Shown here piece after piece: positions 12,203 through 42,300 of a stretch of DNA of 64,000 nt (position 1 is its first letter; each line of letters opens with the position of its first letter). Where the stretch lies: the NCBI GenBank assembly GCA_000442015.1, contig KE560384.1:1-64000 (forward strand), read 5' to 3'. This DNA comes from Rozella allomycis CSF55 (Eukaryota). The notes under the pieces are model-generated. The model did not search any database and had not been told where the DNA came from. It was given only the letters and a program-made list of their open reading frames with translations. The translations under genes and the position numbers were made by a program.

Positions 12203-13954
12203 ATGAGTACTGTAGAATTTGAAAGCCAGTTAAAAGAAGCCCTTTCACGCAACCCCCATGATTTTAGTGCATGGGAGCAGTTATTGCAAGTGAACGAGAC
12301 CAAAGTAGCGAAAGCGTTAGCTGAAGCGCCTAGAACAAAGATGACGATAGATACTATGCCAGAGTCACTTAGAAGAGCGATTCAAGGAACACAAAAAACA
12401 TATGATGAATTTCTGGGAAGATTTCCGTATTGCTTTGGATATTGGAAAAAGTATGCCGAGTTTGAGATGGTACACGAGGGAGATGTGAAGGCGAGAGAGG
12501 TAAAAGTATTTTTTTAAAAATAAATCAGGTGTATGAGAGAGGGGTTGGAGCGTTTCCGAACAGTGTTGATTTGTGGATTCAATACTGTACGTTTGTGACC
12601 AAGATAACGAAGAATCCAACTGAGGTGAGGGGGTTGTATGAAAGGGGAGTTGAGTGTATTGGATTAGATTTTATGGCGCATTCATTTTATGATATATATT
12701 TGGAGTGGGAGGAGAATCGTGCGATTGAGCAAAACAGTTATTCGAGGACGTTGTCGTTGTTGGATAGACTGATAAGGATTCCGATGCAGCAATACCAACG
12801 ATATTATGAAAGATATCAACAGATAGCGAATGTGAGAAACGCGAGGGAAATGGTGTCAGCGGAGGAGTATCAAGTGTTGAGAAAGAGGGTTATTGGAGAG
12901 ATGAAGACGAGACAAGTGAAGAACATAGTAAATAGAATGTGAAATGGTTATGAATAGAGAGATGATGCTGTGGATTCAGAAATCAAACAAATTGTGTTGA
13001 ATGACAGAGCAGGGGTATTTTCTATTACAGAAGAAAAAGTAAAGAAGAGATGGCAATTTGAAGAAAACATTAAGAGGCCATATTTCCACGTGAAGCCATT
13101 AGATGAAGGGCAGATCATCAATTGGAATAAATATTTAGATTTTGAAGAGAGCGAAGGAGACGCCGTGAGAATAATTTCATTGTATGAAAGATGTTTGATT
13201 TCTTGTGCGTTTTATGAAGAATTTTGGATTCGCTATTCCAAATATTTGATCTTGATTCAAGATTATGAAAGAGCAGAAAATGTTTTCATTAGATCTGTCT
13301 ATACTTTTATTCCAGAATCTCAACCAAAATGTTTAATTAGTTTTGTCTATTTCAAAGAAAGTCAAGGTACCATGTGGCATAGTTATTTAATCTAGGTACC
13401 ATGTGGCTGAGTGATCTAATCTAGGTAAAATAAATGAAGCGAGAGAATTATTGAATTATTATTTACAAAAAAGACCAGGGCAGTTGCAAGTATTAATTGA
13501 ATATGCCAACTTTGAAAAGAGGAATAAATCTTTTCAAGATGGATTGAAGTTTATTTCCAGTTGGTTGGAAAGCGTTGATGAAGTTTCAAAGCCTTTTCTT
13601 TACTCCTTCTTGGCCAAAAATATTTGGATTTACAATAAAGAAATTAACAAAGCAAGAGAAATGTTCATTAAAGGAATCCAAGAAACAACCGATAAATTTT
13701 TACTCTTTCAATACATTCAATTTGAAATCACAAATAACAATCTAGAGTCAAAAGAAAATGTTTTGAATATTTTTAATTTAATCAAAGATTATTCTTTTCC
13801 AATTCACATCAAAAAACAAGTCGTTGAGAAAATTTGTGATTTTTTAATAGATTGTGGCTGTGCAATGAAAGAGTAAGAAATTTCATGTTCTATTTTTAGA
13901 ATTTCTGATTTCGAAATTTCCAGTTTGAAAGAAATTCTAAATTTCAAAAATTAA
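12203..13954 (+). CDS. PRP39: U1 snRNP HAT-repeat protein Prp39
   Basis: FPYCFGYWKKYA, IGLDFMAH, IKRPYFHVKPLD and LYERCLISCA motifs. Confidence 0.93.
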
Positions 13955-13989
13955 AAGTAAAATTTTAAATTAGTTTATTTCTCAATTCT

Positions 13990-15803
13990 TTAAATTTGTC
14001 TTTGAACTCTTTCCACTTTGTCTTGTTGTTGAATTGCCAATTTCTTAAGGAATGGCAATCCCTTCTTCTTTCTCTTTCCTTGATAGGCGGCATCAACAAT
14101 CTTCCATTCTTCTGGCAGAGGATCTTTACTTTCCCTTGCAATTCTTTCCATCAATTCCCAATTCAACTCCACTTTGATTTCTTCTTCCTTTACTTCTTCT
14201 TCTTTCGTCTTGTTGTACAAAGACTCTTTAAATTCTCTTAAATACGATTGAATAGCGAATGCGTCATCTCTCTCTGCTCCAATCTTCATTACTCTCTCAA
14301 ACGTTCTTGGTGAATATCTGTAGCCAAATTCATACAGCTTTCCATGGATTGAATAGAAAAGATGCGCTTTGATTCTCCTAAACTTTGCCAGCATCGTCAA
14401 ATATTTTATTATTGTTTCATCACTAGTCCACGTATCAAACGGTAACAATGTTGTTCTAATCAAAAACTTTTCCACAGTTCGCTCCTTTTTCTTTTCTCTA
14501 TTCTTGAACAAACTTTCAACCAAACTCGTCAACTGTCCATGATGACTCTTCTTACGCACATCATCACACTTTTTAAACACATCCTCTATCTTGTCCAAAT
14601 ACTGATTCACAAATGCAAACAGTATCTTGTTCTCACTCACAGTCTTGAAATTACCTAACATCAATCAACATCTCTCTTACTCAACAATGTCAACATTCTC
14701 TCAAACATCATTCTTCTTCCTAGCACCCCTGCTTTACTCATCACACTAAACCCCGTACCTGACTCAGCCATCAAATCAATCAATTCCACATAACTCTCCC
14801 GCAAAACATTCCCTGAATTAAAATACCTGGAACTCACAAACAAACACATCACTTCCTCTCCCGTTAGGTATCCCCCATCATAAAACTTTCGGAGTCCATC
14901 CAACACTTGCTCTCCACTAACTTCAGCTTTATCAACAAACGCTTCCATTATATCCAATCCCCTAACCATATCGCCATTTTCTTTCATCTTTTCATTCATT
15001 TTCACATTCCTCAACGCATTCTCATACGTGTTGCTTGTATTCGCAAAAACATCAACAACATATTCCGCTGGCAAATAAATTCCATCTTTCATGGAATCCT
15101 CAATCAAATTTATCGCACTCTCATATTTGCGCTCAGCTACAAACCTCTTAAGGAATTCTTCATCAACAGTTCTTCTTTTCAGCCCCTTGAATCCTTTCAT
15201 TGCAATCCTCTTGAACTTTAAGAAATCAAGATTTGTTCCAGCTAAATGAACAAAGAACTCTCTTCCAAACTCTTCTTCAGTTACTTGATACTTTGCGTAA
15301 TCTATCGATCCAATCACACGCGAAAATTCATCAGAATCTTTTTCAGCCAACATTATCAAATATTTGCTCAACAACCACTTGTCTGCATCATACCCAAGCA
15401 TCATTCCATCAAGTAGCATCTTCATGGCATAATAGTCATTGCTATCCTCTTCACTCATACCCTCTTTCTGTGAATATTTCAATTCAATCATATTCTTCAC
15501 CTCTTCATCTGTTGGTCTATTCACAAGGAATGTTAACCCCTTAACACTCATCCCAGATAGCACTGCACTGATTGTATACTTGTAAAATGGAAGTGTAATT
15601 AAATTTTTATAATTTCGATTAACATGCTGGAACAAATTAAATGCTGGTAACGCTTCCCTTTCATGCGCGTATTTAGATATAGTCGTTAAATATGGGTTGT
15701 CTTTTAAATCGTACAATGTAGAATACAATTTTGGGGCATTTACAGTAAACTTTGGGGTGCAAAGAACGCCTCTCTTTAATACATTGCGAGTTATTAACTT
15801 CAT
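13990..15803 (-). CDS. Hypothetical helical-repeat protein, possibly mitochondrial (2 exons)
   Basis: Two long ORFs joined by a 26-nt GT-AG intron near 14655-14680; basic N-terminus MKLITRNVLKRG resembles a presequence. Confidence 0.55.
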
Positions 15804-15882
15804 TGTATTACCCCTGCAATATCCAGTTATGGAAGGACCAAATAGCAAAACATGCAAACAAATTAAAGTGTAATAAAAATAT

Positions 15883-18309
15883 TTATAAAGTAATATTAAC
15901 ATCTCTAATTTCATTCACGATAGAACTGGCTTTGCGGTAGACTTCAAGCATAGTCTTGCACTTTGCTCTTTCTTTGGCTATCAATTCATCTTCTTGCAAA
16001 AGTTCATTAAAAAAGTCTTCCTTATAAAGCTCTTGAACAAGCTGATTTTGAAGCATCTCTTTGCTATAATTTACTAGAAAATGCATTATTGCTTTTGGTA
16101 CAGAATCTTGAAGGTTTTTGCGCACGACGTTAAAGTATGATTCAATAAGAGATTCTATGTTTGATTTAAAGAAAAAAGGTACTGATAAGTTGAGTTTCTA
16201 CTTGCTCCTTTTCAGACATGTTGCTTGTGTCTTCTAACACAGATGGGGGCTTATGTAACGGATTAGTCATTCTTACTTGTTCTAACTCTAAATTGGAAAG
16301 AGTCATATCCATCAATTCATCGTCTAAAACTCGAGTTTCTTTTTTCACTGGCGCCATAGCCCGAACAGGTGAAGACATTCGTTTATTCTTTATATGCTCT
16401 TCTTGATTATGATTCACACCAAATAAATAATGTAAAAATCCACCTTCTTGGCCTTTATTGATTCTTCTTCTTGCCTCTGCTGTAACTGGAAGGCCAATTG
16501 ACCCTGGTAATTGCGTTGAATTTGTAAATTGCGGGTCAGTGTTTTCATCAGCAACAATTCTTTCTTTAGTGGGCTGATTTGTCAAAAATAATGTATCTAC
16601 CTTTTTCTCTAGAGTCTCAGTTCTCTTGCTTTCGTGCATTTTTCCCAAAGCTTGTATTGCAGCTGCGGCACCCATAAAGTCTGGATGGTTTGTATTAATG
16701 TACGCAAGCTCAATTCTAACCAAATTTTCAATCATCGAACTGGTCTCATTTAATCTATTTTTAACCAGTTCGCTAGAAGCATCAATGACCTTTTTGTGCA
16801 AATTCGGAAACCTAAATAATTCCTATGTGGAGATAAAAATTGAATTTACCATTGATTCACTTTGGTGAAGAATTTTAATCAGTTCATCGTAAACAAGCTC
16901 CATACAGCGCATTCCTGGATATTCTAATCGTTCAATTTGCCTCTTCACGAGAATCTCAAATGATATTTCAGGCACGAATAGGCATGACCTAGGACCCTAA
17001 ATTCAGTCATTTTTTTATTAATACAGTTGAATTACGAATAACAGTTCTGATATCGTTTATACTTAATCCTCCACAAGGGTCAATATTGTATAACGCGTTT
17101 CTGTAAATTTCGTTAAAAATGAAATTAATGCGCGCGCCGCCACACCTTTTGAATTAGTTAAATAATCTTTACAACTCGCTTGTTGAAATGTTTTTGGAAG
17201 TTCCATCCACAGCGTCACAAAAGTCATTTGAGAATTTTGTTATCAATCTCAAAAGCAATGTACCCTATTCTTTCTTTTAATGCATCATTACTCTATGGGC
17301 ATTCCCTTGGAAGTTGGGGTCGCCATAGCCCATTAATTCATGTTGTGTGCTTACTACAAGACTATTTATCTTATTCTTCAATTCAGGCAACCGATCTCTG
17401 ATATGTGCAACCAATATTTGATTTAAAGATCTCGCCAAATAAGCCGAGCCACACCGATGAGCGATACCTCTGTATTGCGGATGATGTCGAAAAAATTCTA
17501 ATTCTTTTTGCATAGCGTCTATCACATTTTTTTGTTCATTTATATCTTTTTGACTTCTATTAACAACCCCGATGAATCCCAATTTCAACTTAAAAGGACC
17601 TTTATTGCACAAAATATCATGGGCACTTGTCCCCTGGTCCATTAAATCCAATTTGGTTAAAACACCAATCGTTCTTAATCCTTGTGGATCAACTTCCCGC
17701 GCAAATTTTAAAGACTCTGAATTGACAATATCTATATTAGCAGGTGTCACAGCCAGTAGAATCGAATTAGGGCGCGAAGAATATTCATAAATCATTTCTC
17801 TGATTTGTTGCTCAATGTCATCAGGCTGATCTCCGACTGGAATCTTATTATTCAATATTTTAATTTTTTACTTTTGTTATTCCTGGGAGATCTACCAGAG
17901 TTAAATTCAACACTTTTGTGGAATAAATCTTTAAATGTATAGGAGTCTTTGATATTCCTTTATTATTACCCGCAATTCTCTGTGTTTCCTTTTCAATTTC
18001 TTTTCTTATTTCATTAAAATCCGTGTATATTAATTCTGGGCTGTGTAAGAAGACGCCCCATTCTTCAACTCCTGCCATATTAATAGCATTTTGATATGAT
18101 TCGTTTATGAGCTGCAACACTAGAGGTCTCCTAGTAACTATATCGTTGCCTCTTGGAAGAAAATCCCTTTGGACAAGGGACTCCAAAACGGAAGACTTGC
18201 CACTACTTTGAGAACCTACAACTACGATTTGGGGAAGATCAATAGGGTCGTGGGAAATAACATTAAAAACATCTTGCAACTTGTTTACAATAGGTATTAA
18301 ACTTTCCAT
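15883..18309 (-). CDS. DNM1: Dynamin-related mitochondrial fission GTPase Dnm1/Drp1
   Basis: [38 protein letters not shown] and a C-terminal GED; 6 introns of 27-28 nt. Confidence 0.9.
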
Positions 18310-19089
18310 TTTGTAACTGGCAAATCGAAAATCGGAAATTCACAATTCATATTGTTCAAACTATTGTTTTTTGAATAAAACCATCATATAAGGGTAGAAA
18401 AGACTGTGGAGAAGGGATGATTCAGTGAAATCCCTCAATCAAAAAACTTTGGTTGCCTAAAATCTCTATGGTATCGCCACAACTGCTGATGTAAATAGAA
18501 CCAATTTGGAATTTATTCTTACTTGGGCATAAATCTCAACTAAGTAAATGAACGAAATTCTTGGGATGATTAAACAAATTTATTTGATTGATTGATTTAA
18601 GTAATGTCTTCACATTCGTGGCAGTGAATTTTAGAAAATTTTTCTTTGAAAACACCAATTAACTCAGAATGTATCAGTCAAATTAAATAATCAATTCTCT
18701 CTTGCATCAATCAATGGATCTTGAATTCTTTTGCGAAAGTCTCCCAACGAGCCAACACTATTCCAAGATTAAGAGTTAAGACATGATCTTCGAGTCATCA
18801 TCTTTCTTGTCATTGAATTGCTTCAACCTTATTTTAAGAAACTGTCTAGCAACGATATCGTTTATGCTCGATAGAACACCGTGATAAGTTAATGAATGTG
18901 GTACAGGATATAAAATTGGAAATATCTTTGTAATTTGCTCACAAATTCAAAAAGGAATCATATTTTAAAACTTTGTTGTGTGACACTGACTTCCAATTGC
19001 TAATGCTTTCCAATTACACCTATTTTACAATAAAATAGAAATGGAAATTTTTAGTTTCAACTTTCTTAGTTTGTTTATTTTGAAATTTC

Positions 19090-20594
19090 ATGACCGTTGT
19101 TGTAAGCTTTGGAAACAAACTATTTCGGAGAAATATATACTTTTCACTATTCACAATCGCTTCATTTGTTATTTGCTTGGCATGGTATAATTCACGAGCG
19201 GTAGATGATATTCATTCAAATGAAAATGAAAAGTAACTCGATATTTATTTTATATCACCAGTATTAATCCAATTAATTCCGTGGTTGTTGAAATTCAGGA
19301 TATAATTAATAATCAAGAAGGCATAGGTGCGATTTCAAAAGAATATAAATCTACGGACATAACGGATTTGGCGAGGTCATCATTTTTCTGCTTTGATCAA
19401 AAATCTAGAAACGCTAGTTGCCATTTTACCAACGTATGTGTCCATCCGACTCATGGGCCAATGTTATTATCTGCCAATCTTAGTGAATTGAGTAGAAACG
19501 ATGTGTTCATAACAAAGAACCCGATTTATGGTATTAATGAGAGAGAAAAAATGAATCCATTATTGCCGGGCGTAAATTTGGTGGCTGCGAACACTTGGGA
19601 CGACCGCTACTATTTTCCAGCCGTTCTACATAACAAACAAGATGACCGAAATTCTAGAAAAATGGATATCAATGAGTATCAATTTGAAATGATTTATGAT
19701 ACTGTCTTGCTTGTTTATTCTGAATACAGTTGGTATCATCTTAGTCATTACATAATGAACCTAATTAGGCCAATGATTAATATTGTTTTAAACAATAAGG
19801 AATTAATTGAACAACAAAATTTCTTAACTGAATTTCAAGAATTGGTGAATATAAATGCAAGTTTTAGTCCATATTTCTTTACAGAATCAATGAAATGGAG
19901 GACTACCGGGTATTTCTATGCGATTTCACGACCTGCATTTTCACCTCATTTCTTGGTGGATGATTTTTATATAGCCGATTTGTCAAATGTTGTTAAAAAT
20001 ACTTCTTTTTCAGATAATAATAAAGTACGGTGCTTTCAAAAAGGAATTGCAGGGGATTCCAGTTCGTTTCAAAGAATTGAGTGGGGAATTGAAAGATGGT
20101 TGTTAGTCAAAAATAAAATTTTGGACTATTTTAAAATTATTCGCGATGAACGGCAAGCAAAGACTCAGATTCCTCATTGTATTGTAGTTCAAAGAAGAAA
20201 GACCAGGGTTGTAAAAAACATGGACGAGTTAATTAAAAGACTACAGACTAAAATAGCTATTAGATTGGTGGAATTAGAAGACATGAGTTTTACCGAGCAG
20301 CTGCAAATGTTTTCAAGATCGAAATGCCTCATTGCCGCGCATGGTAATGCATTAGGCAACATGATATTTTTACAAACGCGTCCGATAGTATTTGAGCTGA
20401 CTCTTGGAATCAGTGACTGGTTTTGGACGATGGCCAAGGAAATCGAGTCGGAATATGTGTATTTAGAATTTCATTCAAAGGATTTTGGATTACCTGAAGA
20501 AGTTGGAATGCCTATAAAAGATAGAAATTTCATTGTAGACATTGACCGCGTAGAAGAAGCTTTGACGTCTAGACTCTCTTTGTTTGATAAATAA
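19090..20594 (+). CDS. Glycosyltransferase family 61-like type II membrane protein
   Basis: N-terminal TM exon, then a 29-nt intron; C-terminal EQLQMFSRSKCLIAAHGNALGNMIFL motif. Confidence 0.75.
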
Positions 20595-20622
20595 ATTGTA
20601 AATTCAAGAGTTAAAATTTTAT

Positions 20623-22065
20623 TTACATTAATTGTGAGCTTTCGGAACGCTTTATTTTGTTTCTTTGTTTAGAAAATAAAGAATTGAAACTTTTAGACCT
20701 TGGGACAGTGGGATATTCCAGGTTAGGGAGAGAAGGTGCCTCCATCAAGGAAGTCAATGGAATAATCGAATCATTTACATTAGATGTGTTTAAACCTATT
20801 GAACTTCTTGTCTTTGTAGGGCTACTCGTCTTGGTACTTATAGTAGCGTATGCATTGACTATGGACAAAGTCGAACTTGTCTTGGAAAGTGACGTTGCAG
20901 GCTTCCTTTCAAACATTGCAACTTGTCTTTCATCTTCAGTATCCCAATGCCGTTTGCATAGCTTATAAATGATTGGCACATGATGATCGCCCCTGGTCAT
21001 AACCTTGCCACGCCTCACGCAGCATTCAAAATATGGTCCCCCGCAAAATGTACATTCATTGGCTGTAAGAATGTAATCTTTTAAAATATCGGGAAGAAAT
21101 TTAATTATCGGCAAACTATGTCTTATAATTGACCGAGCACAAAGTTCCTTTAGAGATGGTGAAGCAAAGAAACATTCAAAGCCAGGCATAACTTCAAGTA
21201 AAGGGCATTCATCAAGAGAAAGATAACGTAGCAAATGAAGTCTCGAAATTTCAGCAGGTAAAAACTCTATAGGATTTCTTGAGAGGTCCAATGTGGTGAG
21301 CTTTTCTAGCTGGCCGATTTCTTGGGGTATTTCACGGATTTTATTCCCATCCAAACAAAATACGGATAATTCTTTTAAAGCCACGATAGATTTCGGAATT
21401 TCTGTCAATTTGTTGTTCGAAACTCTCAATTGTTGCAACTTTTTCAGAAACCCAATACTCTCTGGAAGTTCACTCAAGTTGTTTTGACTTAGCGTCAAGA
21501 CGCTCAAATTTTTCAAATATCCAATTTCTACCGGCAATGTTTGAATTTCATTGCAGCATAATTGAAGAACTTGTGCTTGCTTTAATAGCCCTATATTAGA
21601 TGATAATCGAGCTAAATTCTGAGAACACATTCCAATCTTCACAGTAGATGATAAACTCTTAAAAGTAACGGGCTGCAACCTGACCTTTTTAGCGCGCTTT
21701 CTTTCAATGTCTGGCTTTACTGATGATAATTTAGTCATAATTTCAGTAAGTTCCTCAATATCATTCACTTTATGCAGCCTTGATATCAATTCATTGTCAA
21801 GTTCAATTGGATTTTCAATTGATCCGTCGGTATATGAATCCTCCTTGTTAAAATGTTCCACCAGATATTCTTTAGGGAGTGGGACATTCATATCCTGATG
21901 ATTACATACAGCAGGCAGTGAAAATGACCTTGGCCTTCCTGTTTCGTCGTTATCAATTTCAGTCAATCCTCTCAATTTAATCGTTTTGATTTTACCTGAT
22001 ATTGGCGATGGTATAGAATATCCAAATACAAAATAATCAAATTGTTTGCTACTCGAGACTCCCAT
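20623..22065 (-). CDS. Leucine-rich repeat protein with BC-box-like and Cys-rich C-terminus (LRRC58-like)
   Basis: LRRs, PSLKELCAR, CTFCGGPYF; MGVSSS N-myristoylation motif. Confidence 0.75.
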   Translation of the reverse strand: MGVSSSKQFDYFVFGYSIPSPISGKIKTIKLRGLTEIDNDETGRPRSFSLPAVCNHQDMNVPLPKEYLVEHFNKEDSYTDGSIENPIELDNELISRLHKVNDIEELTEIMTKLSSVKPDIERKRAKKVRLQPVTFKSLSSTVKIGMCSQNLARLSSNIGLLKQAQVLQLCCNEIQTLPVEIGYLKNLSVLTLSQNNLSELPESIGFLKKLQQLRVSNNKLTEIPKSIVALKELSVFCLDGNKIREIPQEIGQLEKLTTLDLSRNPIEFLPAEISRLHLLRYLSLDECPLLEVMPGFECFFASPSLKELCARSIIRHSLPIIKFLPDILKDYILTANECTFCGGPYFECCVRRGKVMTRGDHHVPIIYKLCKRHWDTEDERQVAMFERKPATSLSKTSSTLSIVNAYATISTKTSSPTKTRSSIGLNTSNVNDSIIPLTSLMEAPSLPNLEYPTVPRSKSFNSLFSKQRNKIKRSESSQLM

Positions 22066-22148
22066 CGGTGTTTGTTTGTTTTTGTTTACAATTTGTAAAT
22101 GAGTAATAATACGCTATTTCAGGACAAATGCAAACCAATTTGGAAATT

Positions 22149-23627
22149 TCAAAACGATTTATTACTATTTTTTCGTGACATGAAATCGCGTTGACTTGGC
22201 CATGGATGATACGACCCTTTTATTCAAAATTTAGTGAATTACCAAGGTAGCTTTCGCCATCCCCTGCGCGCTCATGTTTAATCGGACCATCTAGATATAC
22301 CAAGTCAAATCCACCAACTTTAGGCCTTTCTTTCTTGTCGTACAAAGGGAATCTATAAATAAAATCAAAGTTGCCTACTTCTTTTCCATGTCGATTATGT
22401 CGAAACAATCATTCAGAACCTGATGCTTCAGTTCATAATCCATTTGTGTTTCGGCACTAAAAGAAGGGGACGCATTTACTTCCAGCAACCATCTTTACTA
22501 GACACTAATTCAAATTTACGGGTTCAAAGTATTGTCAATCAACACATCGTATCCGTACAATTCGAAACAATGTTTGTCTTGTATCATAACTTTTTGAACA
22601 CATAATAATGATCTAATTATCATTGCCTCTATTTTTCCAAACAAAGATTTGCACTCTTTTTCGCCGTGCTTTGTCATTATAAACATTTTCAGGTTTCGCA
22701 AGAGCCATTTGCATCCTCTTTCCCCATCGTAATTCGGTGCCGTCTTTTGGACTGCAACATTTGTGGCATGTATATACAAATTCGATAAATCTTTTGCGTC
22801 TGATGAGTAGGTAGAGTTTGAAAACCGGCAAAATCCATTTCGATGTATGTAAACCGTCAATGGTGAGTAAGACGTGACCAAAACATAAATTCTCAAGTCG
22901 AATTTTTTCCCTCCGATCAAATATGGATTGTCTATGTATTTTTGCACAATATAAGCTTCCGGCTCTATTCTTTCATTTGCAGAATTTGTCTTTGGGTCTT
23001 TCCTCCATTGGCTGATTTGACTGAGTTTATTAATTAAGAAAATCCCTTTTCCCTGCGCTTTTCCTACCGGTAAATTTGCATCATTAAAACTTTACTGGTT
23101 TCATGATCCACAATGACCCAGGATTTCTTTTAAATTCTTCTTGAAACATTGCATGCTCTTGAGGCAAGACGAAACTCGTTGAAATAAATTCGAATCTAAA
23201 ATCCTTATAAAGTATTAATACTTGGACGCTTCTTGTCTTCCAAACTCTCTTTCTATATACCGTACCATCCTTTTGACATTCTTTACAAGGAAATCCTTTC
23301 TTGTAAGCTGTTCTTTACAGTATATAGGAATTTACCTCGTAATGATTTCGGAAGTGGTTTATTCTTTGATGATCCAACAAATGTATTGTGTCGAAGACTT
23401 CATGGACCCAGAAAACATCAGCCCAGTGAAAATCCCAATCTGTTTCATATTGACCCGTACTTATCAACAATATTTGTTATCTATTACGTGGAAACGTCTT
23501 TCCAACCTCTATCTTTCATAACGTCGTATATAGTATTGTTCATGTGTGTTCTAAAACGAATTACACTGAAAACTATTAAATATCAAAGTTACGGACTCTT
23601 TTCTTCATCTTTGGCATTGGCGAACAT
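22149..23627 (-). CDS. TTLL9: Tubulin polyglutamylase TTLL9-like
   Basis: NHFRNHYELTRK, WIMKP..QGKGIF, KFDLRIYVLVTSY, FELYGYDV and WLLEVNASPS motifs. Confidence 0.85.
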
Positions 23628-23671
23628 AAAATGGAATGTAAATGAAAAGTATAAACAAAAAGTTCATTTAT

Positions 23672-27890: not shown

Positions 27891-28002
27891 GAGAAAGCTA
27901 CGCCACTGGACCAACAAAGTGTAAATGCAACGAAACCGCCATTTTTATTAATAAACAAAAATTTATGATACTAATATTAATTACATTCATTGTAAAACCA
28001 TT

Positions 28003-28939
28003 TTATTGGCGAATTAATAAAAGCTCGTAAACAGAAAATACCAAGCCAACTGCACACGATGCTTGAAAAAATCGAAAAGGTATTACATTAAAGAATAACT
28101 TCATGGAAAATTCAGAAGAAAGAAACACGACCAAAAATCTAGTCACATGAAATATCATTGGACTCAAAAATCGCGTTTTTGATTCCATGTTAAGGATGAT
28201 TGAGGCGAGGTAAGGAACCACAATTAACCAGACTAACCAAAGGTTAAAAGTACGAGAAAATAAAGTAGATGCATCCCTCGCGGTCGCGATGAAAGATTCC
28301 ATAATTGTTTGAAACCAAGACAATGTAAATGGTTCCAATTCCAGAGGAAGAAAAGCAGTTCTGAAACCAGCAATCAAAGACAAAAATTCGCTTAAAATAA
28401 TTGCAAACATGACTGATGATGCGTCAATTTGCTAGAAAGAGAATAAAAACCAATATTTACGTTTGCTACCATCTTTAATGGGTTCCAATTTCTCTTTTTT
28501 CTAATCACAATTTCAGGCTTGGATTTTTCACAAAGTTCCGCACATTTTTGTTCGTCCTTTTCGTCCTGGACAAAGTTCGGTTCTTCTTGGAAGACATTTG
28601 CAGGAGATTCAAATATTTCTTTATCCAAGCCATCTTCTTCTTTTCTTCTATTAGATTCTTCAGAATGATCGAGAAGATTGTCGATGACCTTAAAAGCAGC
28701 ACCACGTTTTTTAACCCTAGGGGTTTCGATCGGTCTATTTTCCTTATTGAGGTCCCCATCTTCGAGATGCCTGCGTATCACGTCTGCTAACTCGTTGCGT
28801 GACAAATTTTTGGCGTCTATACCCAACTCAATTGCAAGGTCTATACTCGATTCCGAAACTATTTTTTACCTAAAAGTTCGGGTTTCTTTAGCTTGTAAAC
28901 TTTAGATGGTGTCACCATTACGTCGTTTATGCTTGACAT
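28003..28939 (-). CDS. Membrane protein with N-terminal helix-extension-helix-like motif (possibly Gtt3-like)
   Basis: Spliced KLKKPELLDLAIELGI..LSRNEL; C-terminal TM segments; two 29-nt introns. Confidence 0.5.
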
Positions 28940-30239: not shown

Positions 30240-30414
30240 TAAACTTTATTTAACTATATTGACCATAAACAAGTATACATGTTNCTATTTAACTATATTA
30301 ACCATAAACAAGTATATACAGTCCATCATGTTGCTATTTTTGGAATTGTAGCATGGCTTTGAACCATTTATAGCCCTGTGACCAATCATGAACATTACCC
30401 CTTAATCAACGTTC

Positions 30415-30879: not shown

Positions 30880-30898
30880 CATGCTTAAATAAAAAGAA

Positions 30899-32174: not shown

Positions 32175-32317
32175 GCACAAAGAAAAATCGTAAATCCTGA
32201 AATGCAACTAGTTGGGTTCATAAAATGAATGAAAGATAAAACTGCTTATAATTCGATTTTGAATACAGTTAAGAAGATCGTTAAATTAGGATACGACCAG
32301 GTTCAAGCCACTTAAAC

Positions 32318-33496
32318 ATGACAGTTGAACAAGTTTTAGTTTTATGGGAGGAGGCAAAGTCTCTTGCGTTTGGTACTTGATATATTCCAAATAAAATTAG
32401 ATGAACATGCAAAAATAGAAAAGTTTAAGCGAAAACTTCGTAGTATAAACTTTACCATAGAACATGTCACCACTGAAGAAAAATCTACATGCGTTTTGCT
32501 ATACCTGTCGGCTAGGTGTTATTACAGTCCGTATTTTATAGAGGGTATACCCAAGTTGGACAGTATTAATTTGAATGCTGCTCTGGATGATGTTAAGAAG
32601 TATTTCGTGCAAGATAATTACCAAAGCCAAGATATTGAGCTGTACAAGAAAGATTCAAGCTTTAGCGATAGTGACGATGATGATAACATAGAAATATCAC
32701 GACTAGATATTCCACCGGTAAAATTGAAGAAAAGTAGACCTTACACAAAGAAGTGGAAAGAATTTCAACAGGTTATTTACGCTTTTGAAAGCATTTTGAA
32801 TCAATTCTCAAATGATGACATTTTGATTAACTGGAACACGATCGTGCCAATATTAATCCAGCTGATAGATGATTACGTTTTAGTTAATCGTAAAATTGGA
32901 GTTTCCATTATTCATAACATCCTCAAATTTAATGTTGGACCATTGCTAACCAGGAATAACATTTCCGTGGTTTTTGAAAAGTCTTTATATCCCTGCCTTA
33001 CATATTATAAAGAGCAACGCCTTATCGAAGAAACGTTAAATTCTTTGCTTAAGATAATTGAATATACTGCGCACAAAGCCTCTGCTTCATATTATGAAAG
33101 ACTTGATGTCCTTTTTACAAGAGTTTTGAAAGACCTAAGAGTTGAAACAAATATTAAACTTTGTCTTATATATTGGCAATTAACTATTAAAATTAAAGAT
33201 ATGCTTGGATTGATGATCATCACCTATTTTGACACTCTTATTCCTCTCTGTTGTAATGTTTTACTTGAACCTGATTATCCAAATGATCTGTGTTTAAAAT
33301 GTCTCGAATTTGTAGAATCAATAATTTTAAAATACCCAATAGAGTAAAATATTTCATCTAATGTGATGTTAGGTCAAGGAGGCTCAGTCATGAAATTGTT
33401 ACATTATTAAGAAAGAATTATTCGTTCTCATCGGACGAAAACAAAGATTGTATACAAACTATCAATGAATTCAAAAAATATAAAGGCATTTATTAA
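32318..33496 (+). CDS. TTI2: TTT complex subunit Tti2-like
   Basis: WNTIVPILIQLIDDY...KIGV motif; 2 short introns. Confidence 0.65.
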
Positions 33497-34005
33497 CCTT
33501 CAATGGGAATGGCTTTTCTGTTTTCAATTTCTTGTTCCTCATTTTTGGGTATTTCAATATTAAGAATTCCATCAGAGTAGTTGGCCTTTATTTCTAATAA
33601 AATTTGACACATTAATTTACCTTCAACCTTGGCATTTTCTGGTAGAGGAAATTGTCTTTTAAAAATTCCATACATCCTTTCTCGGGCCCAAAAAGTTGGG
33701 GTCTCATGATCATGGTTTCCTTTATCTTCCCATGTCTTTTCTGACTTGAGCTCTCCTGATATCATTAATGTGTTTCCGTTCAAAATTTCAAGTTTAATGT
33801 CTTCTTTTTTCACACCCGGCAATTCCGCCTCAATTTTAAAATCCTTTGGAGTTTCAATGACGTCTGCATTCATTTCTCTGTAGTCTTTCATTTTATTTGA
33901 TGTCAAGTGTGGGCTGAAATTGAAGGAGGACTTAATTAAGGGTTCTTCAAATATCTTCGAGATTCGATTCAAGTCATTAATTAATACTCTCTGTAATCGA
34001 TTCAT
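33493..34005 (-). CDS. Small heat shock protein (HSP20/alpha-crystallin)
   Basis: ELPGVKKEDIK, ERMYGIFKRQFPLP and ANYSDGILNIEIPK motifs; in-frame 27-nt intron at 33594-33620. Confidence 0.95.
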   Translation of the reverse strand: MNRLQRVLINDLNRISKIFEEPLIKSSFNFSPHLTSNKMKDYREMNADVIETPKDFKIEAELPGVKKEDIKLEILNGNTLMISGELKSEKTWEDKGNHDHETPTFWARERMYGIFKRQFPLPENAKVEGKLMCQILLEIKANYSDGILNIEIPKNEEQEIENRKAIPIEG

Positions 34006-34052
34006 TATAATTAAAGGCTGCGGTTCTTCCTTAAATACTTTTAATCAAGATC

Positions 34053-34070
34053 ATCTAGACTTTTCTGGAA
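34053..34070. promoter_or_regulatory. Putative heat-shock element upstream of HSP20
   Basis: ATCtaGACttTTCtgGAA, an imperfect array of alternating nGAAn units about 50 nt upstream of the ATG. Confidence 0.5.
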
Positions 34071-34337
34071 TCTAGGGTTAAGATCATGGAAAATATTCGG
34101 TTGATATATTTTTATTCCTTTTTTAATGAGTTAAAAAAATATTTAAATTAAAATATATTAAAAAAATACATCAACACATGACTTTATTATCTGTAACATC
34201 TTTCGCGGCAAGCAAATGATAAACTGACAAACTTCTTTCCTTATTCCAAGACCACACTTATTTGCCGTTGAACCACTAGGACTATTTGTAAACAACCTTA
34301 GCAGAAGATAGAATTGATTTGACAACAAGTGAGTAAG

Positions 34338-35075
34338 TTACTGTAATTTTATTAATGTATAACCCAAGTCGTGACATAAATACTGTCGAAGTGCTTCGCA
34401 ACCTTTTGTTTCGCAAACTTTAAACCATTTTTGATTTGCAATAGGAAGATCATCCACTGACAATGGTGCCTCCAATCCTAATCTCAAAACATTTAAGTTA
34501 AAATTTTCCTCATGAAATTTAATTCGTTGATGAAATTTCTTTTTTCGACCAACCTTTCTTTTGTCTATAACAGTGCATCCCGAGCATACCAAGCTCGTNA
34601 GAGGAAATTTTTCTTTTATCCATAAAGTTAAATTGAGGATTTCTTAATTGCTATATGGAGCAATAAATTTACCATTGCCGACAACTTCTCGATATGCATC
34701 AGCCCCTGATCTTCCTCTATCTTTACTATTTAGCGATCCTTTCGATTTTACGCCACCAATGAACTTTCCAAATCTACGTTTTTGGTCTTTGCATTTTCCC
34801 TCTGTTAAGAATTCAAATTATTTACCATAAACCTACTTTCGTTTGACACGTATGAGCGAGAATTAAGATTTCCTGCGCGCCTCTGATATACTTTTTGTTG
34901 GCTGGGTTGTGGTAAATAATCTAAAGCCTTGTTTCTGGAGTAATCATCCAATGGCTCCAAAATTGCATGAATCTTGCGTTTAGACAGACTTAATTATATA
35001 CCTCCATGTCACGCTCCAGTATTCGTAGTTGATTTTCATAAGACGCTTGAAATATTTAAACTGACTTCATATTAC
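34338..35075 (-). CDS. Hypothetical multi-exon gene or pseudogene of a repeated family; ends uncertain
   Basis: Frame stays open across 26-30 nt GT-AG introns; N at 34599; 23-nt identity with the repeat mosaic at 4270-4292. Confidence 0.35.
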
Positions 35076-35191
35076 TGTATGACAAGTTTTTCATATCGGA
35101 TCACACTCAGAAACTCAATTGGAGTATAATGTTCCGACGATACCAATTTTATCCCGCGTGGAAATAAAAATTGATTGAAACGCGAATTTAT

Positions 35192-36210
35192 TTATTTATT
35201 CTTTGGCTTTTTCCTTATTAAATTTTGACTCATGGTAATAGGTTCGGGATCTTCGAGTCTTCGTTTTTTTATTTCTCCATGACCGATGCACATTGATCTG
35301 TTCCATTCAAGCGCACATTTTCCACTAGTTAAGATTTTATCGATATGCGAGGTTGAGTCAATTGCTTTAATTTCATTGCTAAAATCCGAATGCGTGGTTA
35401 AGTATTCAAGTATGTCATCGAATACGCTATACTGTGACGTCTCCTTTTCATGGAAGTCAGCCATGCTCTTTTCCCCTTCGATATCAACTTTGTGGACGCT
35501 GAAAAGGGCGGCAATTGAAGTTGTAAAGCAAGAATCTAAAGATGACATGAAATCTTCGACTGTGACATTTTCATCGTCCAAATTTGTGAAATGCTTGGAT
35601 TTCGGATCGTCGCTAAAGGTTAGAGGGATAGAATCCCTAGCCTTGTCTGATTTGTTATATGGATATCCGATATTTATATTCGAGCACACATTTAGGTAGG
35701 ATTTAATTTTTTGAAACAATGGAAGCTGGTCAGCGTTAGGAATATGAATCCAAGATTTAGTCCCCGGAATATCTTCTAAGCAATGTATCCACCACCATAT
35801 TAAATCAATATCGTTACAAGGTTTCTTCGTTGGATTTTTATGTGAAAAAGAAAATAGAAAGGATGGCTTTGCACAAGCGATCAAGTGAAATTTACTGCTC
35901 GCGGATTGTTTAATAGCGAATTTGACAAGAGCGCGAGTCACATATTTTTGCAAATTTCTGGGCTTAAAAAGTCCGGTTGAATCTATGTATTGAATATAAT
36001 CATGATATTCCTCTCCTTTCTTTAATGATTGACTTAATAGAGCTAGAACTAAGCAACTACCTTGCTTCACCATATAGAGCGTTTTTCCATCTACACCCTG
36101 TTTAAATAGAATAGATATTTTACCTTGACTTTGAGAAAGGATACTTCTACTTTATACTCTTTTGGAAGCGCTTGTGACAGATAGTCGAAAAATGATGCCG
36201 AAACTGTCAT
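35192..36210 (-). CDS. RTT109: Histone H3K56 acetyltransferase Rtt109
   Basis: YIQYIDSTG, FLFSFSHKNPTKK..DIDLIWWW and FSDDPKSKH motifs; 26-nt first intron. Confidence 0.8.
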
Positions 36211-36695
36211 TCGGTATTTCCAGAAATTCAGAAGTATGTAAACCATATGTTGGAAAATATTCAATGAAGAACAGGTATAAACCGCGAATGCAAAATGAAA
36301 TAATCCGGATTGTATCTATTTTATACATCTACAAGATGGATTTTGGCTTGGAAGAAGCTACAAATCTTTTCAACAAGTATTATGTAAATTTTTAAATAAA
36401 TTATTTTTTATTTCATTCGATTCGACTGAATTTCCGTTATTTTGATTTTTGAACAGGGAATCATTGGTTGTTGTAGAAGTAGTTTCACGTTCATTCATTA
36501 AATTACATGAANCTCCATTTCCGTCTTCAACGTGCATCGGTAATGGATGAGTCATTTCCTAGCACAATTTATCAATTAATAAATGATACTCTCTTATGTT
36601 CACTAAATAGGAATATTGGACTAAATTAAGGTGTGATAACTGACGCTTAACCAGGAATTTTTGAAAGCTGATTGATCCAAAAGTTTAAATCAAAA

Positions 36696-38570
36696 ATGGA
36701 CCTGGAGCTAGCACCAATATTAAGACCTAAATATGACGAGTTCAAAGATTCTATAAGGTTTATTAGCAATATATACTCACAAATATCTGAAATAGGAGCA
36801 TGCCAAGTTGTGCCACCAGCCGATTGGAAAAGAACAACAGGATTTGAATGCCTTGATCATCTTAACCAAGTAATAAAGAGATTGTCAGGTCATTAGTGTG
36901 AAATGCCGGTGTATTCTCAAAAACTTCATTTGATTAATGGGCTTCGAAGAGTAGATCACGGCTTGACTCAAAGTTTCGTTACATTCATAAAATCTTTTGG
37001 GGCTAATGGTCATGGAAAGTTATTTTTTATCGGAAAAAACATAAGTTGTTTTGAACTTTCAAACATTATTGATGAGTCTCAAGTAAATTTCTAGCTGGCC
37101 ACAATATTTAGTGGAATATGGAGAAAGTCATTGAAAAAATCGGTATTAATACAAATGAGACATTTGCCATTAAAGAAATTGGATTGTTCTTTGAATATCT
37201 ACTCCTGGTTAAGGAGGTGAAGGCAGAGGCTTTACAATGGGGAATGAGTGTGCACGATTTTTGTAATTCCGGTCTAGTTATCAAGGTTAATGACAGCAAA
37301 GTAAAGCTTTAGAAAATCATTAAACAAAGTTTGTTTGTAAATCATGCAATAAGCAAGTATATTTAAGAGAGTTGACCTTCTGCAGGGTTTGTAAAGACAG
37401 ATTTCACAGTTCGTGTGTATTATCCATTTCTTGCACCAACAAATATTATTGTGTGCGTTGTATTGTTTTGCCCGGGCATGCATTTAGTTTCGAGCAAGTT
37501 GAAGGGATGACAGTAAAAGAATTTGTTCAAAGCTGCGATAATACAGTCGGAAATGAATTGGAAACCGAAAAAGAATATTGGCAAATTTTGGATGCAGGAT
37601 GTTACAAGGCTCTATACGGAGCAAATATTGATTACAAAACATTGCAAAGTGGGTTTGATGATAACAAAAATGATCAATGGAGTCTTTTAAATTTGCCGCG
37701 CATGTCCCTTTTGAAATATTTGGCTAATGACATCCCTGGCCTGACTCACCCCTGGTTATACTTCGGTTCTAAATTTTCTACATTTTGCTGGCATATTGAA
37801 GATCATTCCTTGATGTCAATTAATTATTTACATTCAGGCGCTGTTAAAACGTGGTATATAATTCCACCTGAGTATTCCACTGCTTTTGAATTGTGTTTAC
37901 AAAAAACATTACCCCTTCTGTTCATTAGCCAGCCAAAACTTTTGTATCAGATGAATCTTATTCTTCCATTGGATGTATTGAAGAAGCATGGCATTCCTGT
38001 GTACAAAATAAACCAAGTCCCAGGGACATTTGTGATTACTTTTCCGAATTGTTACCATTCTGGATTCAACAATGGAGTAATGCCTATATTTGTTGAAAAA
38101 TAGTTCAATATTGCAGAGGCTGTTAATTTGGCTCTTCCGCAATGGATCCCATTCGCAATGCAAAGCCTAAATCGCTACGCCATTGACCAGCGACTTAATT
38201 TGTTAAGCGTTGATGAAATAATCATTCAAATGATTGAAAATGACGAAAAAATGTCATCCGAGTAAAAATAATCGAAATATTGGCTAGGATTGTATCCATT
38301 CTAATTGAACAAATATCTACCGAAATACGTATAAGAAGAGCCCTGATTGAGAAGTATGGGGAAGTAAAGATAAAAAAGAAACAAAAACGATATATGAATA
38401 AGCATGCATGTAATAATTGCAAAAAGATATTTTTCTTTTCTTATGCTGCTGTTCCTGAAGGCACTTTGTGCCTTTCTTGTATTCAAGATACTCCAGAATA
38501 CGTCGTTTACGGCCTTTCTAGCGACTATTTAACTTTTTTGTTGGAAAAAGTGAATAAAATCTATTGTTGA
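36696..38570 (+). CDS. KDM5/JARID1-type JmjC histone demethylase
   Basis: JmjN (APILRP..GACQVVPPADW), PHD-like Cys motif, JmjC FCWHIEDH...YHSGFN and C-terminal C5HC2-like region. Confidence 0.9.
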
Positions 38571-38792
38571 AAACCACAAGGCCTTTTTGCTATTTGAGTT
38601 TTTAGTATAATATTTTCATGAGGATGCTGATGAATTACAGCGTTTATAATTACCATCTGTTAGTCAACTATACACATGTGGTCCAGACACTGCGCAAGAA
38701 GAAGAGCTGAACTTTAAACCATTTGATCTCCAACGATTGAGATTAAAATGACCTGTCTGTTCACACATTCCTAAAATAATGTAAAGACAAAA

Positions 38793-39263
38793 TTAATAAG
38801 CTCTTTTATATAAATAATGGTCGTCATTTTTAGGATTGCTACGATGGGATCCTTTTACAAAGGGGATCTGTGGAATTTGCGATTTATCATTTCTTGATCT
38901 GTCAGTTGCAATCATTTTTTGTTTTTCTTCTGTATAAACTTGATGCATTTTGACTAAAAAAGACGAAATGCATGTATTACCTAACTCTTTGTAATTATAG
39001 AATGGCGGTAAATCTTTGGCGGACAAGTAGCTTTTATTTGAGCCATGCTGATCCACGCCCAGGAAATCCAATAATTTTTCATGCAGTTTTGGATTTTTAA
39101 AGCTCTTGTTTGCAAAAAGTTTTTCATTGAACGATAGGCCTGATGTAGTTTTAAGGTGATACCAATGTGCAAACTTGTGTTGAAGTGCATCTGATGCCTT
39201 ATTTGTGCTTTTTGGTATTATAACGCTGTCGGGGTTTGTTAAAAAGGGATAATAATCAGACAT
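38793..39263 (-). CDS. HCNGP/SAP30BP family protein
   Basis: SFNEKL..NKSFKNPKLHEKLLDFLGVDQHGSN motif; in-frame 27-nt intron. Confidence 0.85.
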   Translation of the reverse strand: MSDYYPFLTNPDSVIIPKSTNKASDALQHKFAHWYHLKTTSGLSFNEKLFANKSFKNPKLHEKLLDFLGVDQHGSNKSYLSAKDLPPFYNYKELGNTCISSFLVKMHQVYTEEKQKMIATDRSRNDKSQIPQIPFVKGSHRSNPKNDDHYLYKRAY

Positions 39264-39338
39264 TTAAATGTGGCTAATTTTTTAAGTGTCCCAGTGGATC
39301 AAATAGAAAATGGAATAAGTTCAATTTAATGAAAGAAT

Positions 39339-42300
39339 TTATTTGTCTACCTTTTCCTTTGAATTATTTTCGTTTTGATTTTCCAAGTCTTTATCATAGC
39401 CCAACAACCAATACGTTCTCATTGAACCTTTTCCCTGATTGCAAATAAAAGAGACTGTTACTTTCACTTGAATTTCACCTCTATATTCAGTTTTGAAACC
39501 GCTTAGTTTTTGAAGGGCATTGTAGGCGGACTCGCTGAGTTGAATTTTCATTGCTTCCGACGTACTCTCCATTCTAGATGCAACATTGATAGTGTCACCA
39601 AATAAGCAATATCTAATGATTGTAGGATTAAATAAGCATACCTTGGTAATTTTAATCCGACAACACCAGTGACACATGGACCTTTAATGTGCTTGAATAT
39701 TCATATGTTACCTAGTCGATGGTGATTACTTTATTAATTTACCTGTGTTGATACCAATTCTTATCTGTAGTTTGAAATCTGGTTTATGTGGCACTGTGAA
39801 ATTTTTGGCTTCTTCCAATAAATGAAGGGCCATTTTTGCGATTTCACCGACATGTTTAATTCCATTCCGTCTAGGCAAACCAGAAGCGACCATGTAGCTA
39901 TCACCTTTGATAAAACATATTGAAAGAATACCTATGTGAAGGATTAAAAATGGTTACCTATTGTTTCTACTTTATAAACGTCATATTGACCAATAATTTT
40001 ATCAAACATTGAATATAATTTATTCAAGAATTCAACTATTTGATTTGGAGTGCTTGAAGATGTCAAATCAGAATAGCCCACAACATCAGAAAAGTAGATT
40101 GTACATTCGTCAAACGATTCTGGCGGAACTGGGATTCCTAATTTGACTTTGATTTTTTAAAAAACCTTTTTGAAGATTTGAAGCAATTTGAGGCGGTAAA
40201 ATTTCTTGTAATAAATTCTTTGCATTTTTCTGGGCTGTAGCCAAAGCGCTAGCCACACCTTATGTTAAGAAATGAATAATGGGAAACCTTGATAATTTTA
40301 TTTTAACTATTTTACCTTTAATTTGAGTTTCTTTCATTATTCGAATTTCTTCTTCTCTCGCTTTGCTTTCTTCTTCTTCTGTTAAATCTCTAATGACCCC
40401 TGTAAAAATATGAAAATCTTCTTCCAAAACTTCAGTGACGGATAAACTAATAGGAAATTCATCTCCATTCTTTTTTCTCCCTGTTACTGTTCTTCCAATG
40501 CCAATAACTTTCTTAATCCCAGTATTTAAGTAATTTGACAGATAAGTGTCGTGATTTGTTGCGAATCTTTCTGGCATCAACATTTTAATGTTTTCTCCAA
40601 CAACTTCTTTTGCTGAATAGCCAAACATATTCTCTGCTGCTTGATTGAATCTTAAAATGATGCCATTCTTTCCAATGCTAACAATTCCATCCAAAACTGT
40701 ATTCAAAACTGAACTCAAAATTCTTCTTTCAACATGCATCTTCTTTTCTGACTCTCTAATAATCAAATTGGATTGTTTTTCTCTTTCCTGCATTGCTATA
40801 ATCTCCTCAATCTCTTTTCTATGATTGCTTCTAACAGTCTTCAAGTAATTTGATTGTTCTTCATCCAAAATTAATAATCTCTCGTTATGGTTTTGCTTCA
40901 TTTGATTGTATTCCTGTAAATGAATCATTTTTGAATCACCTAAATTCATTTCCTTCCTCTTTACCAACGCTTTGTGATTATTAATCATTTCTTCCAATTG
41001 CTTTTCCAATGATTGAATGTGCGAATCATTTTCTACTCCAAATTTATTATCAATTTCCAATTCTTCATTAAATGCCATCGATATCTCGGAATCATTGTCT
41101 GAAATATCTCCTGTAGACCCTTGTGATTGCAACCCCTGTGATTTGGATTTCGATTTGATCGATCTGTTTCTTGTATTATTATTCTTTTTAAAATCTCTCA
41201 TCTCTTCAAATTCATCCTCCTTTTCTTCATTCTCTTCAATCTCCTCCTCTAAGTCAACTTTACTCTTCATTAGCCATTTCTTTCCCCTCATTGACGCTTG
41301 AAGTAAATGTTCTCTTTGGAGTTGTTTCAACTGCATCTTTTGATTTCCCCTCAGTTTTTTCAAGTCATTCGCTTGCTCTGTCTTTATTTTCACCATCTTT
41401 ATTGTTTCCCTCAGGTTTTCAATCTTTTCTTTACTAGCACTAATCTCTGCCTTTTCATTCAACTCAATCTCTACAAAAGAAGAAGCTTGACTAAGCCCCA
41501 GAGATTGCAATTCTTCATAAAACTCTTCTTCTTTTTCTATTCGCTCTTTTCTTTGTCGCATTTCAATAATCTGAATCTCTCTCAATTGTTCACTCTTCTT
41601 TTTATTAATCACCTTCAAGTTATTCATTCTAAACTGGAAATCTTTCATCTTGTCCATCTGCTCATATTCCATCAAATGCTTAGATTCCAATTCATGAAAA
41701 ACTTGCTCATCTCTCATCAATCTCTCTTGCTCTTCTTGCAACTGCCTTTGCTCCCTGATATGTCTCTCCTCCATCTGAACAACTAAAGCTTCATTTGCTA
41801 ATCTCCTCATATCAACACTCTTCTTCAAATTTTCAGCAGCCATCCTACTCGCCTCCTGCTGATGAATCAACATGGCGCGACTCTTTGTCTCCTTGTACAT
41901 CTGCTTCTGAAGCCGCTTTGTGTTCCGCCTATTCTGACGCTCCTGCAATACTCTCAAATGATTCTGCTTCTTATGTTCCATCTCCTCTCTATGCCCCGCC
42001 TTCATCACACTCACCTCCTCCTCGCATCGTCTCTTGAAATACACATCTTCCTCTTTTCTATTTCATAAATTTTAAAAATTTTACCTGCTTAACTCAATCT
42101 CTGCCCTCTTGATCTCATTCTCCACCTCAATAGCATTTCTTCGTAATTCACCAATAATTTGATCAATCATGCACTGTTGTTTCTCTCGAAACATACGAGT
42201 TGCTTCCTCATTTGATAAAACATTCCCTTTATGACCAACTACTATGGGTTCAAATGTAGATGATCTGCTGGGCCGGTCGTTTGCTTGGACTCCTAGTTGG

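Follow-up and report, generated by a model that had tools for sequence, protein, structure and literature searches.

Abutting pairs of minimal introns separated by a zero-length exon in nuclear DNA of Rozella allomycis

Zero-length exons are the hallmark of recursive splicing and are known from very long fly and human introns. The fly introns removed in this way extend over many kilobases. Zero-nucleotide-exon recursive splicing has been reported in Drosophila for Ubx and about 200 other sites (10.1101/006163), and two zero-length-exon cases have been documented in Schizosaccharomyces pombe (336-nucleotide (nt) intron; bioRxiv 10.1101/226894). A second kind of composite intervening sequence, the stwintron, is described from filamentous fungi and Lipomyces, with a proposed origin involving small splice-site duplications (PMC7138796). 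Tandem duplication of AGGT is reported to create spliceable introns, and the ATP2A1 intron lies between the first and second bases of a Gly codon (PMC3265369); potato RdRp provides a further case of this type (PMC4974935). Introners are described as long, structured and dispersed, with many near-identical copies (PMC3609843). Here, we describe four intervening sequences of 53-61 nt in a 64,000-nt stretch of Rozella allomycis CSF55 nuclear DNA (assembly GCA_000442015.1, contig KE560384.1, positions 1 to 64,000 of the forward strand; hereafter referred to as the window), each consisting of two complete minimal introns abutting at AG|GT, with a zero-length exon between them. This structural reading is secure. 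All counts given below relate to this single window.

The Rozella composites resemble recursively spliced introns in that an AG|GT lies inside the intervening sequence, the donor would be regenerated for a second reaction and no exon bases would be left behind. They differ from them in several respects: the known cases split long introns, whereas each part of a Rozella composite of 53-61 nt is itself a minimal intron; the outer exon flanks in Rozella are also AG and GT; one Rozella pair is a tandem duplicate; and stepwise removal has been demonstrated in the known cases, whereas in Rozella it is a prediction. Like stwintrons, which are removed by consecutive reactions, the pairs are complex intervening sequences of two U2-type units. 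In stwintrons, however, the internal intron interrupts the donor, branch or acceptor of the external one, which exists only after the first reaction, whereas the Rozella units lie end to end, both complete from the outset, and could be removed in either order. Before any splicing, each unit already has an intact GT...AG and a hexamer donor of its own, and the distinction from nested stwintrons drawn in an initial annotation of the window, made from the sequence alone, is therefore upheld. As in the ATP2A1 and potato RdRp cases (the Rogers model), AG|GT is found at both ends of the new intron and the protein is unchanged, but in those cases it is exon sequence that is copied into the intron, whereas in Rozella an existing intron would be copied to give an abutting pair. 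Introner-like elements are likewise introns that multiply; the Rozella copies differ in being adjacent and tiny and in matching no other intron of the window, and the many dispersed, near-identical copies typical of introners were not found within the 64 kb. Scale (53-61 nt), AGGT outer flanks and an origin as intron duplicates set the Rozella pairs apart from known recursive splicing and from known duplication-born introns. The initial annotation knew of no earlier description, and full-text literature searching, which did not extend to supplements, found none of abutting mini-intron pairs.

Structure of the four composites and their host genes

The gene model combined codon log-odds trained on long open reading frames (ORFs) with splice-site matrices trained on 109 first-pass introns, and its Viterbi decoding allowed introns of 18-150 nt and also two abutting introns in any phase or context. 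It placed 135 introns in the window: 118 single introns of 24-32 nt, four composites and 13 others. The composites (58, 57, 53 and 61 nt, with units of 26-31 nt) were the only abutting pairs found. They are the same four double-length introns that had been split at AG|GT in the initial annotation, recovered here by a model left free in phase and context. One lies in the gene for pre-mRNA-processing factor 39 (PRP39), and the cyclase domain of a class III nucleotide cyclase gene holds the other three. The genes and units are as follows (+, forward strand; -, reverse strand).

12203..13954, +: PRP39 gene (Pfam HAT_PRP39_C, E = 1.4e-43)
13367-13424, +: PRP39 pair, 58 nt (29+29 nt)
13367..13395, +: 5' unit of the PRP39 pair, 29 nt, donor GTACCA, ending in CTAG; score at the 33rd percentile of the 118 single introns
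13396..13424, +: 3' unit of the PRP39 pair, 29 nt, duplicate of the 5' unit, diverged to 25/29 identity
39339..42401, -: PAS-domain class III nucleotide cyclase gene (PAS_9, Guanylate_cyc; P0122 98% identical, P0124 33%)
40259-40315, -: cyclase 57-nt pair (28+29 nt)
40288..40315, -: 5' unit of the 57-nt pair, 28 nt, donor GTAAAA
40259..40287, -: 3' unit of the 57-nt pair, 29 nt, weak donor GTTTCC; score at the 2nd percentile of single introns
40138..40165, -: single 28-nt intron between two of the cyclase pairs, phase 1, after ...AG
39905-39957, -: cyclase 53-nt pair (26+27 nt)
39932..39957, -: 5' unit of the 53-nt pair, 26 nt, donor GTAACC
39905..39931, -: 3' unit of the 53-nt pair, 27 nt, donor GTATTC, open in frame but not coding
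39682-39742, -: cyclase 61-nt pair (31+30 nt)
39712..39742, -: 5' unit of the 61-nt pair, 31 nt, donor GTAAAT
39682..39711, -: 3' unit of the 61-nt pair, 30 nt, donor GTAACA

All four composites interrupt a junction codon G|GT in phase 1, in the context exon-AG|GT..AG|GT..AG|GT-exon, as had been noted from the outset. Inside each of them, a 3' splice-site AG is followed directly by a 5' splice-site GT, leaving an exon of zero nucleotides; the upstream exons end in AG and, at the level of the sequence, the donor regenerated after the first reaction would read AG|GT in all four, with low donor strength in three of them. The first AG at least 26 nt past the outer donor is always the internal AG, and the first such AG past the internal donor is always the outer acceptor.

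Dinucleotide-preserving shuffles (20000 trials per composite, success being an AGGT that splits the sequence into two parts of 24-32 nt) succeeded 921, 3208, 1268 and 331 times for the four composites (4.6%, 16%, 6.3% and 1.7%), with a product of 8e-6. The enrichment in central AGGT over shuffled introns predicted by the initial annotation was thus observed for the four composites of the window. Both exon flanks, AG| and |GT, which were not part of the search criterion, were present in 4/4 composites versus 3/118 single introns (Fisher p = 4e-6), the base rates in single introns being 27/118 for AG| and 10/118 for |GT. The occurrence of phase 1 in all four composites is mildly unusual (p = 0.027), given that 43/106 coding AGGT sites are in phase 1.

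Homologous proteins bear on whether both units are intronic. The deposited protein P0144, 100% identical over the query exon and mapping to 12203-13873, reads FKESQ|GKINEAR at the junction of the PRP39 pair, where eight fungal PRP39 homologues align without a gap. Deposited P0122 can be read across two of the cyclase pair junctions, in stretches of 13 residues each, one of them at the 61-nt pair. At the 53-nt pair, both P0122 and the Rhizophlyctis cyclase P0124, which shares the class III cyclase motifs, show ETIG|D with no insert, and the exon downstream of the 57-nt pair (40166-40258) is backed by P0124. As the homologous proteins are gap-free or lack an insert at these positions, both units must be removed to yield the conserved protein. 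Retention of either unit alone gives a stop codon in seven of the eight cases; in the eighth, retention of the 27-nt unit of the 53-nt pair inserts nine residues into the catalytic ETIGD motif.

These consequences would also suit a regulated use of the pairs, in which removal of one unit only would be frequent and would give non-productive mRNA (or, in the 53-nt case, a protein with the nine-residue insert), the pairs serving as expression switches. Splicing factors are often autoregulated by unproductive splicing, and PRP39, one of the two host genes, encodes a splicing factor, which, like the premature stop in seven of eight cases, speaks for such switches. Nothing in the sequence, however, tells them from simple constitutive removal, and we regard regulated use as very improbable.

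The region is present as unspliced DNA contigs in X1, X2 and X5, three runs from three studies. Independent contigs were compared with the window over 20 kb that covered the cyclase pairs, with the PRP39 pair lying outside. One X5 contig (39234-40797) spans all three cyclase pairs and one X1 contig (39722-41366) spans two of them; the confirmation by spanning sequence called for in the initial annotation was therefore obtained for these three pairs, the contigs compared excluding that in PRP39. In X5, 1-nt insertions at 39915 and 39932 bring the units of the 53-nt pair to 28 and 27 nt, with the internal AG kept; the insertion at 39915 would shift the frame if it were exonic, and such a change can be tolerated only within an intron. 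At 40305 and 40307, both inside the 5' unit of the 57-nt pair, the window is at variance with X1 and X5. Indels between strains lie within units, leaving the AG intact and unit lengths at 27-28 nt. In the RNA run X11, the matches to the region were pieces of 18-24 nt only.

It might be argued that the composites are ordinary long introns with an accidental AGGT, or the product of an assembly error, given that the PRP39 pair lies outside the contig comparison and that the window contains 15 single Ns and a few disagreements with the contigs. The shuffle product, the bridging of the cyclase pairs by contigs of two independent runs and the return of only these four composites by an unbiased model all argue against this explanation, which is largely refuted and has almost no probability left. 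The paired arrangement is not due to chance, and the observation is confirmed.

Origin of the pairs

The two units of the PRP39 pair are identical at 25 of 29 positions, with an alignment score of 21 that was reached by none of 4000 random intron pairs. The pair thus reads plainly as a diverged tandem duplicate of the intron itself, and the duplication is older than the ~1-1.5% divergence between the window and the DNA runs. The unit-to-unit similarity expected of duplication-born introns was not seen in the three cyclase pairs, for which it is random-like (97%, 45% and 45% of random intron pairs score at least as high). AG|GT is found at both boundaries of the new unit, as in AGGT tandem duplication, in all four composites.

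Two other sources of the second unit were considered and rejected. An exon-derived (Rogers-type) origin predicts likeness between units and exons, and the flanking exon ends matched at 0-4 of 12 positions in all pairs, within the background of the single introns. A dispersed intron family was rejected within the 64 kb: the best scores of the eight units against 118 other introns of the window were 7-15, and no unit exceeded the background (median 11, maximum 18).

An intron with exon flanks ...AG and GT... has AGGT at both ends, as direct repeats spaced by the length of one intron. Through slippage or unequal exchange between the repeats, exactly one intron unit would be duplicated, or precisely deleted, and the duplicate would be harmless, as the copy would itself be a spliceable intron. 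The PRP39 pair would still show this history, and the copies in the three cyclase pairs would be older and have diverged. The presence of AGGT on both outer flanks in all four composites favours duplication of a whole intron over insertion of a second one. Tandem self-duplication across AGGT is thus well supported for the PRP39 pair and is favoured for the other three.

Alternatively, a second, unrelated intron may have entered at the AG|GT on the border between an existing intron and its exon, the pair then being spliced stepwise. Independent gain of this kind would suit the cyclase units, whose similarity does not exceed that of random introns (97%, 45% and 45%, as above). It requires AGGT on one side only, yet AGGT is present on both sides in all four pairs, with a probability of 0.003 if the upstream AG is the free one and of 5e-5 if the downstream GT is. 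Furthermore, the PRP39 pair is plainly a self-duplicate, no unit resembles other introns of the window beyond background, and there is no likeness to the flanking exons. Independent gain therefore seems quite improbable, and the proposal of the initial annotation that introns were gained beside existing ones at AGGT proto-splice sites gives way to self-duplication for the PRP39 pair and is disfavoured, by the two-sided flanks, for the others.

Two points weigh against the account given here. For the cyclase pairs, the suggestion of a duplication origin comes from the flanks, their units being without similarity. Moreover, three of the four pairs are in one gene, within only 64 kb of DNA, which makes their independence and their frequency uncertain.

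A side observation concerns the site of the 53-nt pair. In each of the three DNA runs, a contig has 33 nt in common with the cyclase gene (loose ends at 39956 and 39988) and diverges from it on both sides; as protein, in a consensus-letter reading, the contig reads ETIG-DSYM, passing from ETIG directly into a further ten residues. By its sequence, it appears to be a paralogous cyclase without an intron at this site, which is compatible with gain in the copy of the window or with loss in the other.

Single introns and the removal of the pairs

The published intron density for Rozella is 2.5 per kb (PMC8476143), and median intron length is given as 29-197 bp across a fungal set that includes R. 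allomycis (PMC8042348). A first screen of the window, in which open frames were linked via GT..AG gaps, gave a length peak at 26-30 nt. In the gene models, the 118 single introns were distributed as follows: one of 24 nt, 35 of 26 nt, 24 of 27 nt, 23 of 28 nt, 20 of 29 nt, 13 of 30 nt, one of 31 nt and one of 32 nt, in agreement with the 26-32 nt first noted. The lower limit at 26 nt is very sharp, with one predicted intron of 24 nt and none of 25 nt. The donor begins with GTA in 113/118 and with GTAA in 90/118 of these introns, and the acceptor is TAG in 61, AAG in 35, CAG in 16 and GAG in six. In 116/118, the acceptor is the first AG at least 25-26 nt from the donor, an agreement that is somewhat inflated and circular, as the length prior of the model favours 24-32 nt, this effect being limited by the frame constraint. 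An AG at 24 nt is passed over in seven single introns for an AG at 26-29 nt (e.g. 50028-50055, 28841-28869 and 7482-7507).

A spliceosome with such a strong preference for an AG 26-30 nt downstream of the donor would be expected to excise one unit of a pair as a normal intron. This first join would recreate an exon-AG|GT donor or an AG|GT-exon acceptor, and the second unit would then be excised in a second reaction, which would amount to zero-nucleotide-exon recursive splicing at the scale of tiny introns. In the three pairs whose units are otherwise random-like, the internal AG|GT has stayed intact, as expected if the site is used. All of the supported introns of 53-61 nt have a central AG|GT, and there is no supported intron of 33-52 nt, the two predicted in this range (38 and 45 nt) being ambiguous.

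Beyond these lengths, the gene models contain two probable introns, for which an exhaustive search of GT..AG paths showed the AGs that they skip; both are model- and path-based.

6380..6451, -: probable 72-nt intron of a Sec8-like gene, without internal AG|GT, with AGs at 55 and 64 nt passed over; no other GT..AG path is open, and the flanking exons give weak Sec8_C/Sec8_N matches
11605..11675, +: probable 71-nt intron of a RabGAP-TBC gene, without internal AG|GT, skipping AGs at 48 and 55 nt; one of three possible paths, and keeping a TBC-like exon

The exons before and after the 71-nt intron match positions 92-130 and 173-205 of the TBC profile. The likeness between the two introns is limited to AT-rich chance matches. 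The contention that the longer introns are pairs thus holds for those of 53, 57, 58 and 61 nt, and does not extend, beyond the range then considered, to these two; the idea of a strictly length-restricted spliceosome is weakened by the skipping of their internal AGs.

These two introns count as evidence against stepwise removal: if real, they suggest that spans of more than 70 nt are probably within reach of the spliceosome and that AGs on the way can be ignored, in which case removal in one step would be possible. Further points on the same side are the weakness of the internal donors, with GTAA in 1/4 versus 90/118 single introns (p = 0.044), the low score of one unit per pair, no higher than the 2nd-16th percentile of single introns, and the lack of any enriched or positioned branch-point motif among the 118 single introns, such that branch sites cannot be judged unit by unit. 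The circularity of the first-AG count mentioned above also belongs here.

The duplicated pairs may accordingly be excised today as single introns of 53-61 nt, with a branch point in the 3' unit and the internal AG|GT as an unused relic. The tolerance of longer spans implied by the 71- and 72-nt introns, the weak internal donors and the low score of one unit per pair would all suit such a relic, and single introns of 53, 58 and 61 nt would also fit the public models P0122 and P0144. An unused AGGT should nevertheless decay, yet it is intact in 3/3 pairs with random-like units; no intron of 33-52 nt is supported and none of 53-61 nt lacks a central AG|GT; and the internal AG falls exactly inside the range of 26-31 nt occupied by the single introns. 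No RNA folding that could shorten the span or loop out the middle of a pair was detected in the four pairs (z = 0.09 to 1.09). One-step excision is, on this evidence, rather unlikely.

The best explanation would be that the pairs are abutting minimal introns, born by AGGT duplication and removed in two successive reactions, and we consider it to have an even chance of being correct; the stepwise removal across a zero-length exon, which is predicted from the sequence, has roughly even odds. A broader reading, in which the spliceosome would measure a fixed span of ~26-30 nt, introns would bud adjacent copies at AGGT-flanked sites and pairs would be obligately removed in two steps throughout the genome, is put forward tentatively and may well prove too broad.

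Other features of the window and implications of the pairs

The assignment of the window to nuclear DNA of R. allomycis, a cryptomycete parasite of the water mould Allomyces, follows from its near-identity to deposited Rozella proteins. The Iml1/DEPDC5 ORF at 50272-53601 is 99% identical to a deposited R. allomycis CSF55 protein (P0002), its next-best matches being chytrids and zygomycetes at 35-43% identity, and two more deposited Rozella proteins match the window (P0122, 98%; P0144, 100%). The G+C content is 30-36%. The standard genetic code fits, with ORFs of up to 1110 codons open under table 1; the ciliate code was rejected, as it brought no gain and the long ORFs are already open under the standard one. 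A tRNA-Ser (anticodon GCT; 49419-49500, -) was the sole Rfam or ARAGORN match in the window, and the Rfam search found no RNA genes within long introns.

Thirteen predicted introns other than the pairs fall outside 24-32 nt. Two are the 71- and 72-nt introns, five are ambiguous (21, 38, 45, 60 and 80 nt) and six are read as artefacts due to the merging of neighbouring genes or ORFs, the judgement on the last three of those listed below being an interpretation.

872-996: rejected, adjoins the endonuclease ORF of a LINE-like element (Exo_endo_phos match)
15774-15900: rejected, preceded by a dynamin GED domain whose end coincides with that of the exon
27906-28041: rejected, upstream of a RIO-kinase gene
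34030-34169: rejected by reading, before an HSP20 gene
45106-45235 and 45726-45865: rejected by reading, overlapping models on opposite strands

The 60-nt prediction (47834-47893, +), in a doubtful model of 68 codons, has an internal AG|GT that splits it into 21+39 nt, outside the normal range of units. The Sec8-like gene (4745-7573, -) has 13 predicted introns, eight of exactly 26 nt and one being the 72-nt intron. The LINE-like element (2-2405, -, and 2241-4688) consists of a zinc-knuckle ORF and, after it, an endonuclease ORF (Exo_endo_phos, E = 6e-7), and the stretch adjoining it holds 11 of the 15 single Ns. Elsewhere, contigs and window disagree at a few sites: letters are skipped or replaced around 36329-36550, 34511-34600 and 30245-30337, at or near three more Ns. 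A peptide, MDFGLEEA, is common to two short ORFs (4389-4490 and 36192-36376, +), which suggests a small repeated element. Run X10 (2013, same sample as X1) holds contigs totalling 4 million letters, which may represent a transcriptome, this being a guess. A search of metagenomes for related loci with the PRP39 exon gave 108 pattern matches, none of which was confirmed.

The deposited model P0122 wrongly skips the conserved exon 40166-40258 (region 40138-40315, -) by means of an intron of ~165 nt that uses the donor of the 57-nt pair, and it also fuses an upstream RabGAP-TBC gene (42538-43800, -) to the cyclase. Predictors that impose a minimum or a unimodal intron length will mis-model loci of this kind, as in this skipping of a conserved exon beside one of the pairs.

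How new spliceosomal introns originate has long been an open question, with few clear recent cases. In the window, about 3% of intron sites are paired (4 of ~124 credible sites) and, if the proposed origin is correct, such pairs would provide a simple and countable model of intron gain by self-duplication, the value of which is strengthened by one pair that is still recognisably duplicated and by the AGGT that bounds them all. Such pairs would also make it possible to test whether a spliceosome adapted to introns of ~28 nt reads length; if it does, recursion in Rozella would be a necessity rather than just an aid for giant introns. Should the broader reading also prove true, Rozella would offer a natural, genome-wide system of miniature recursive splicing, together with a directly observable route of intron gain.

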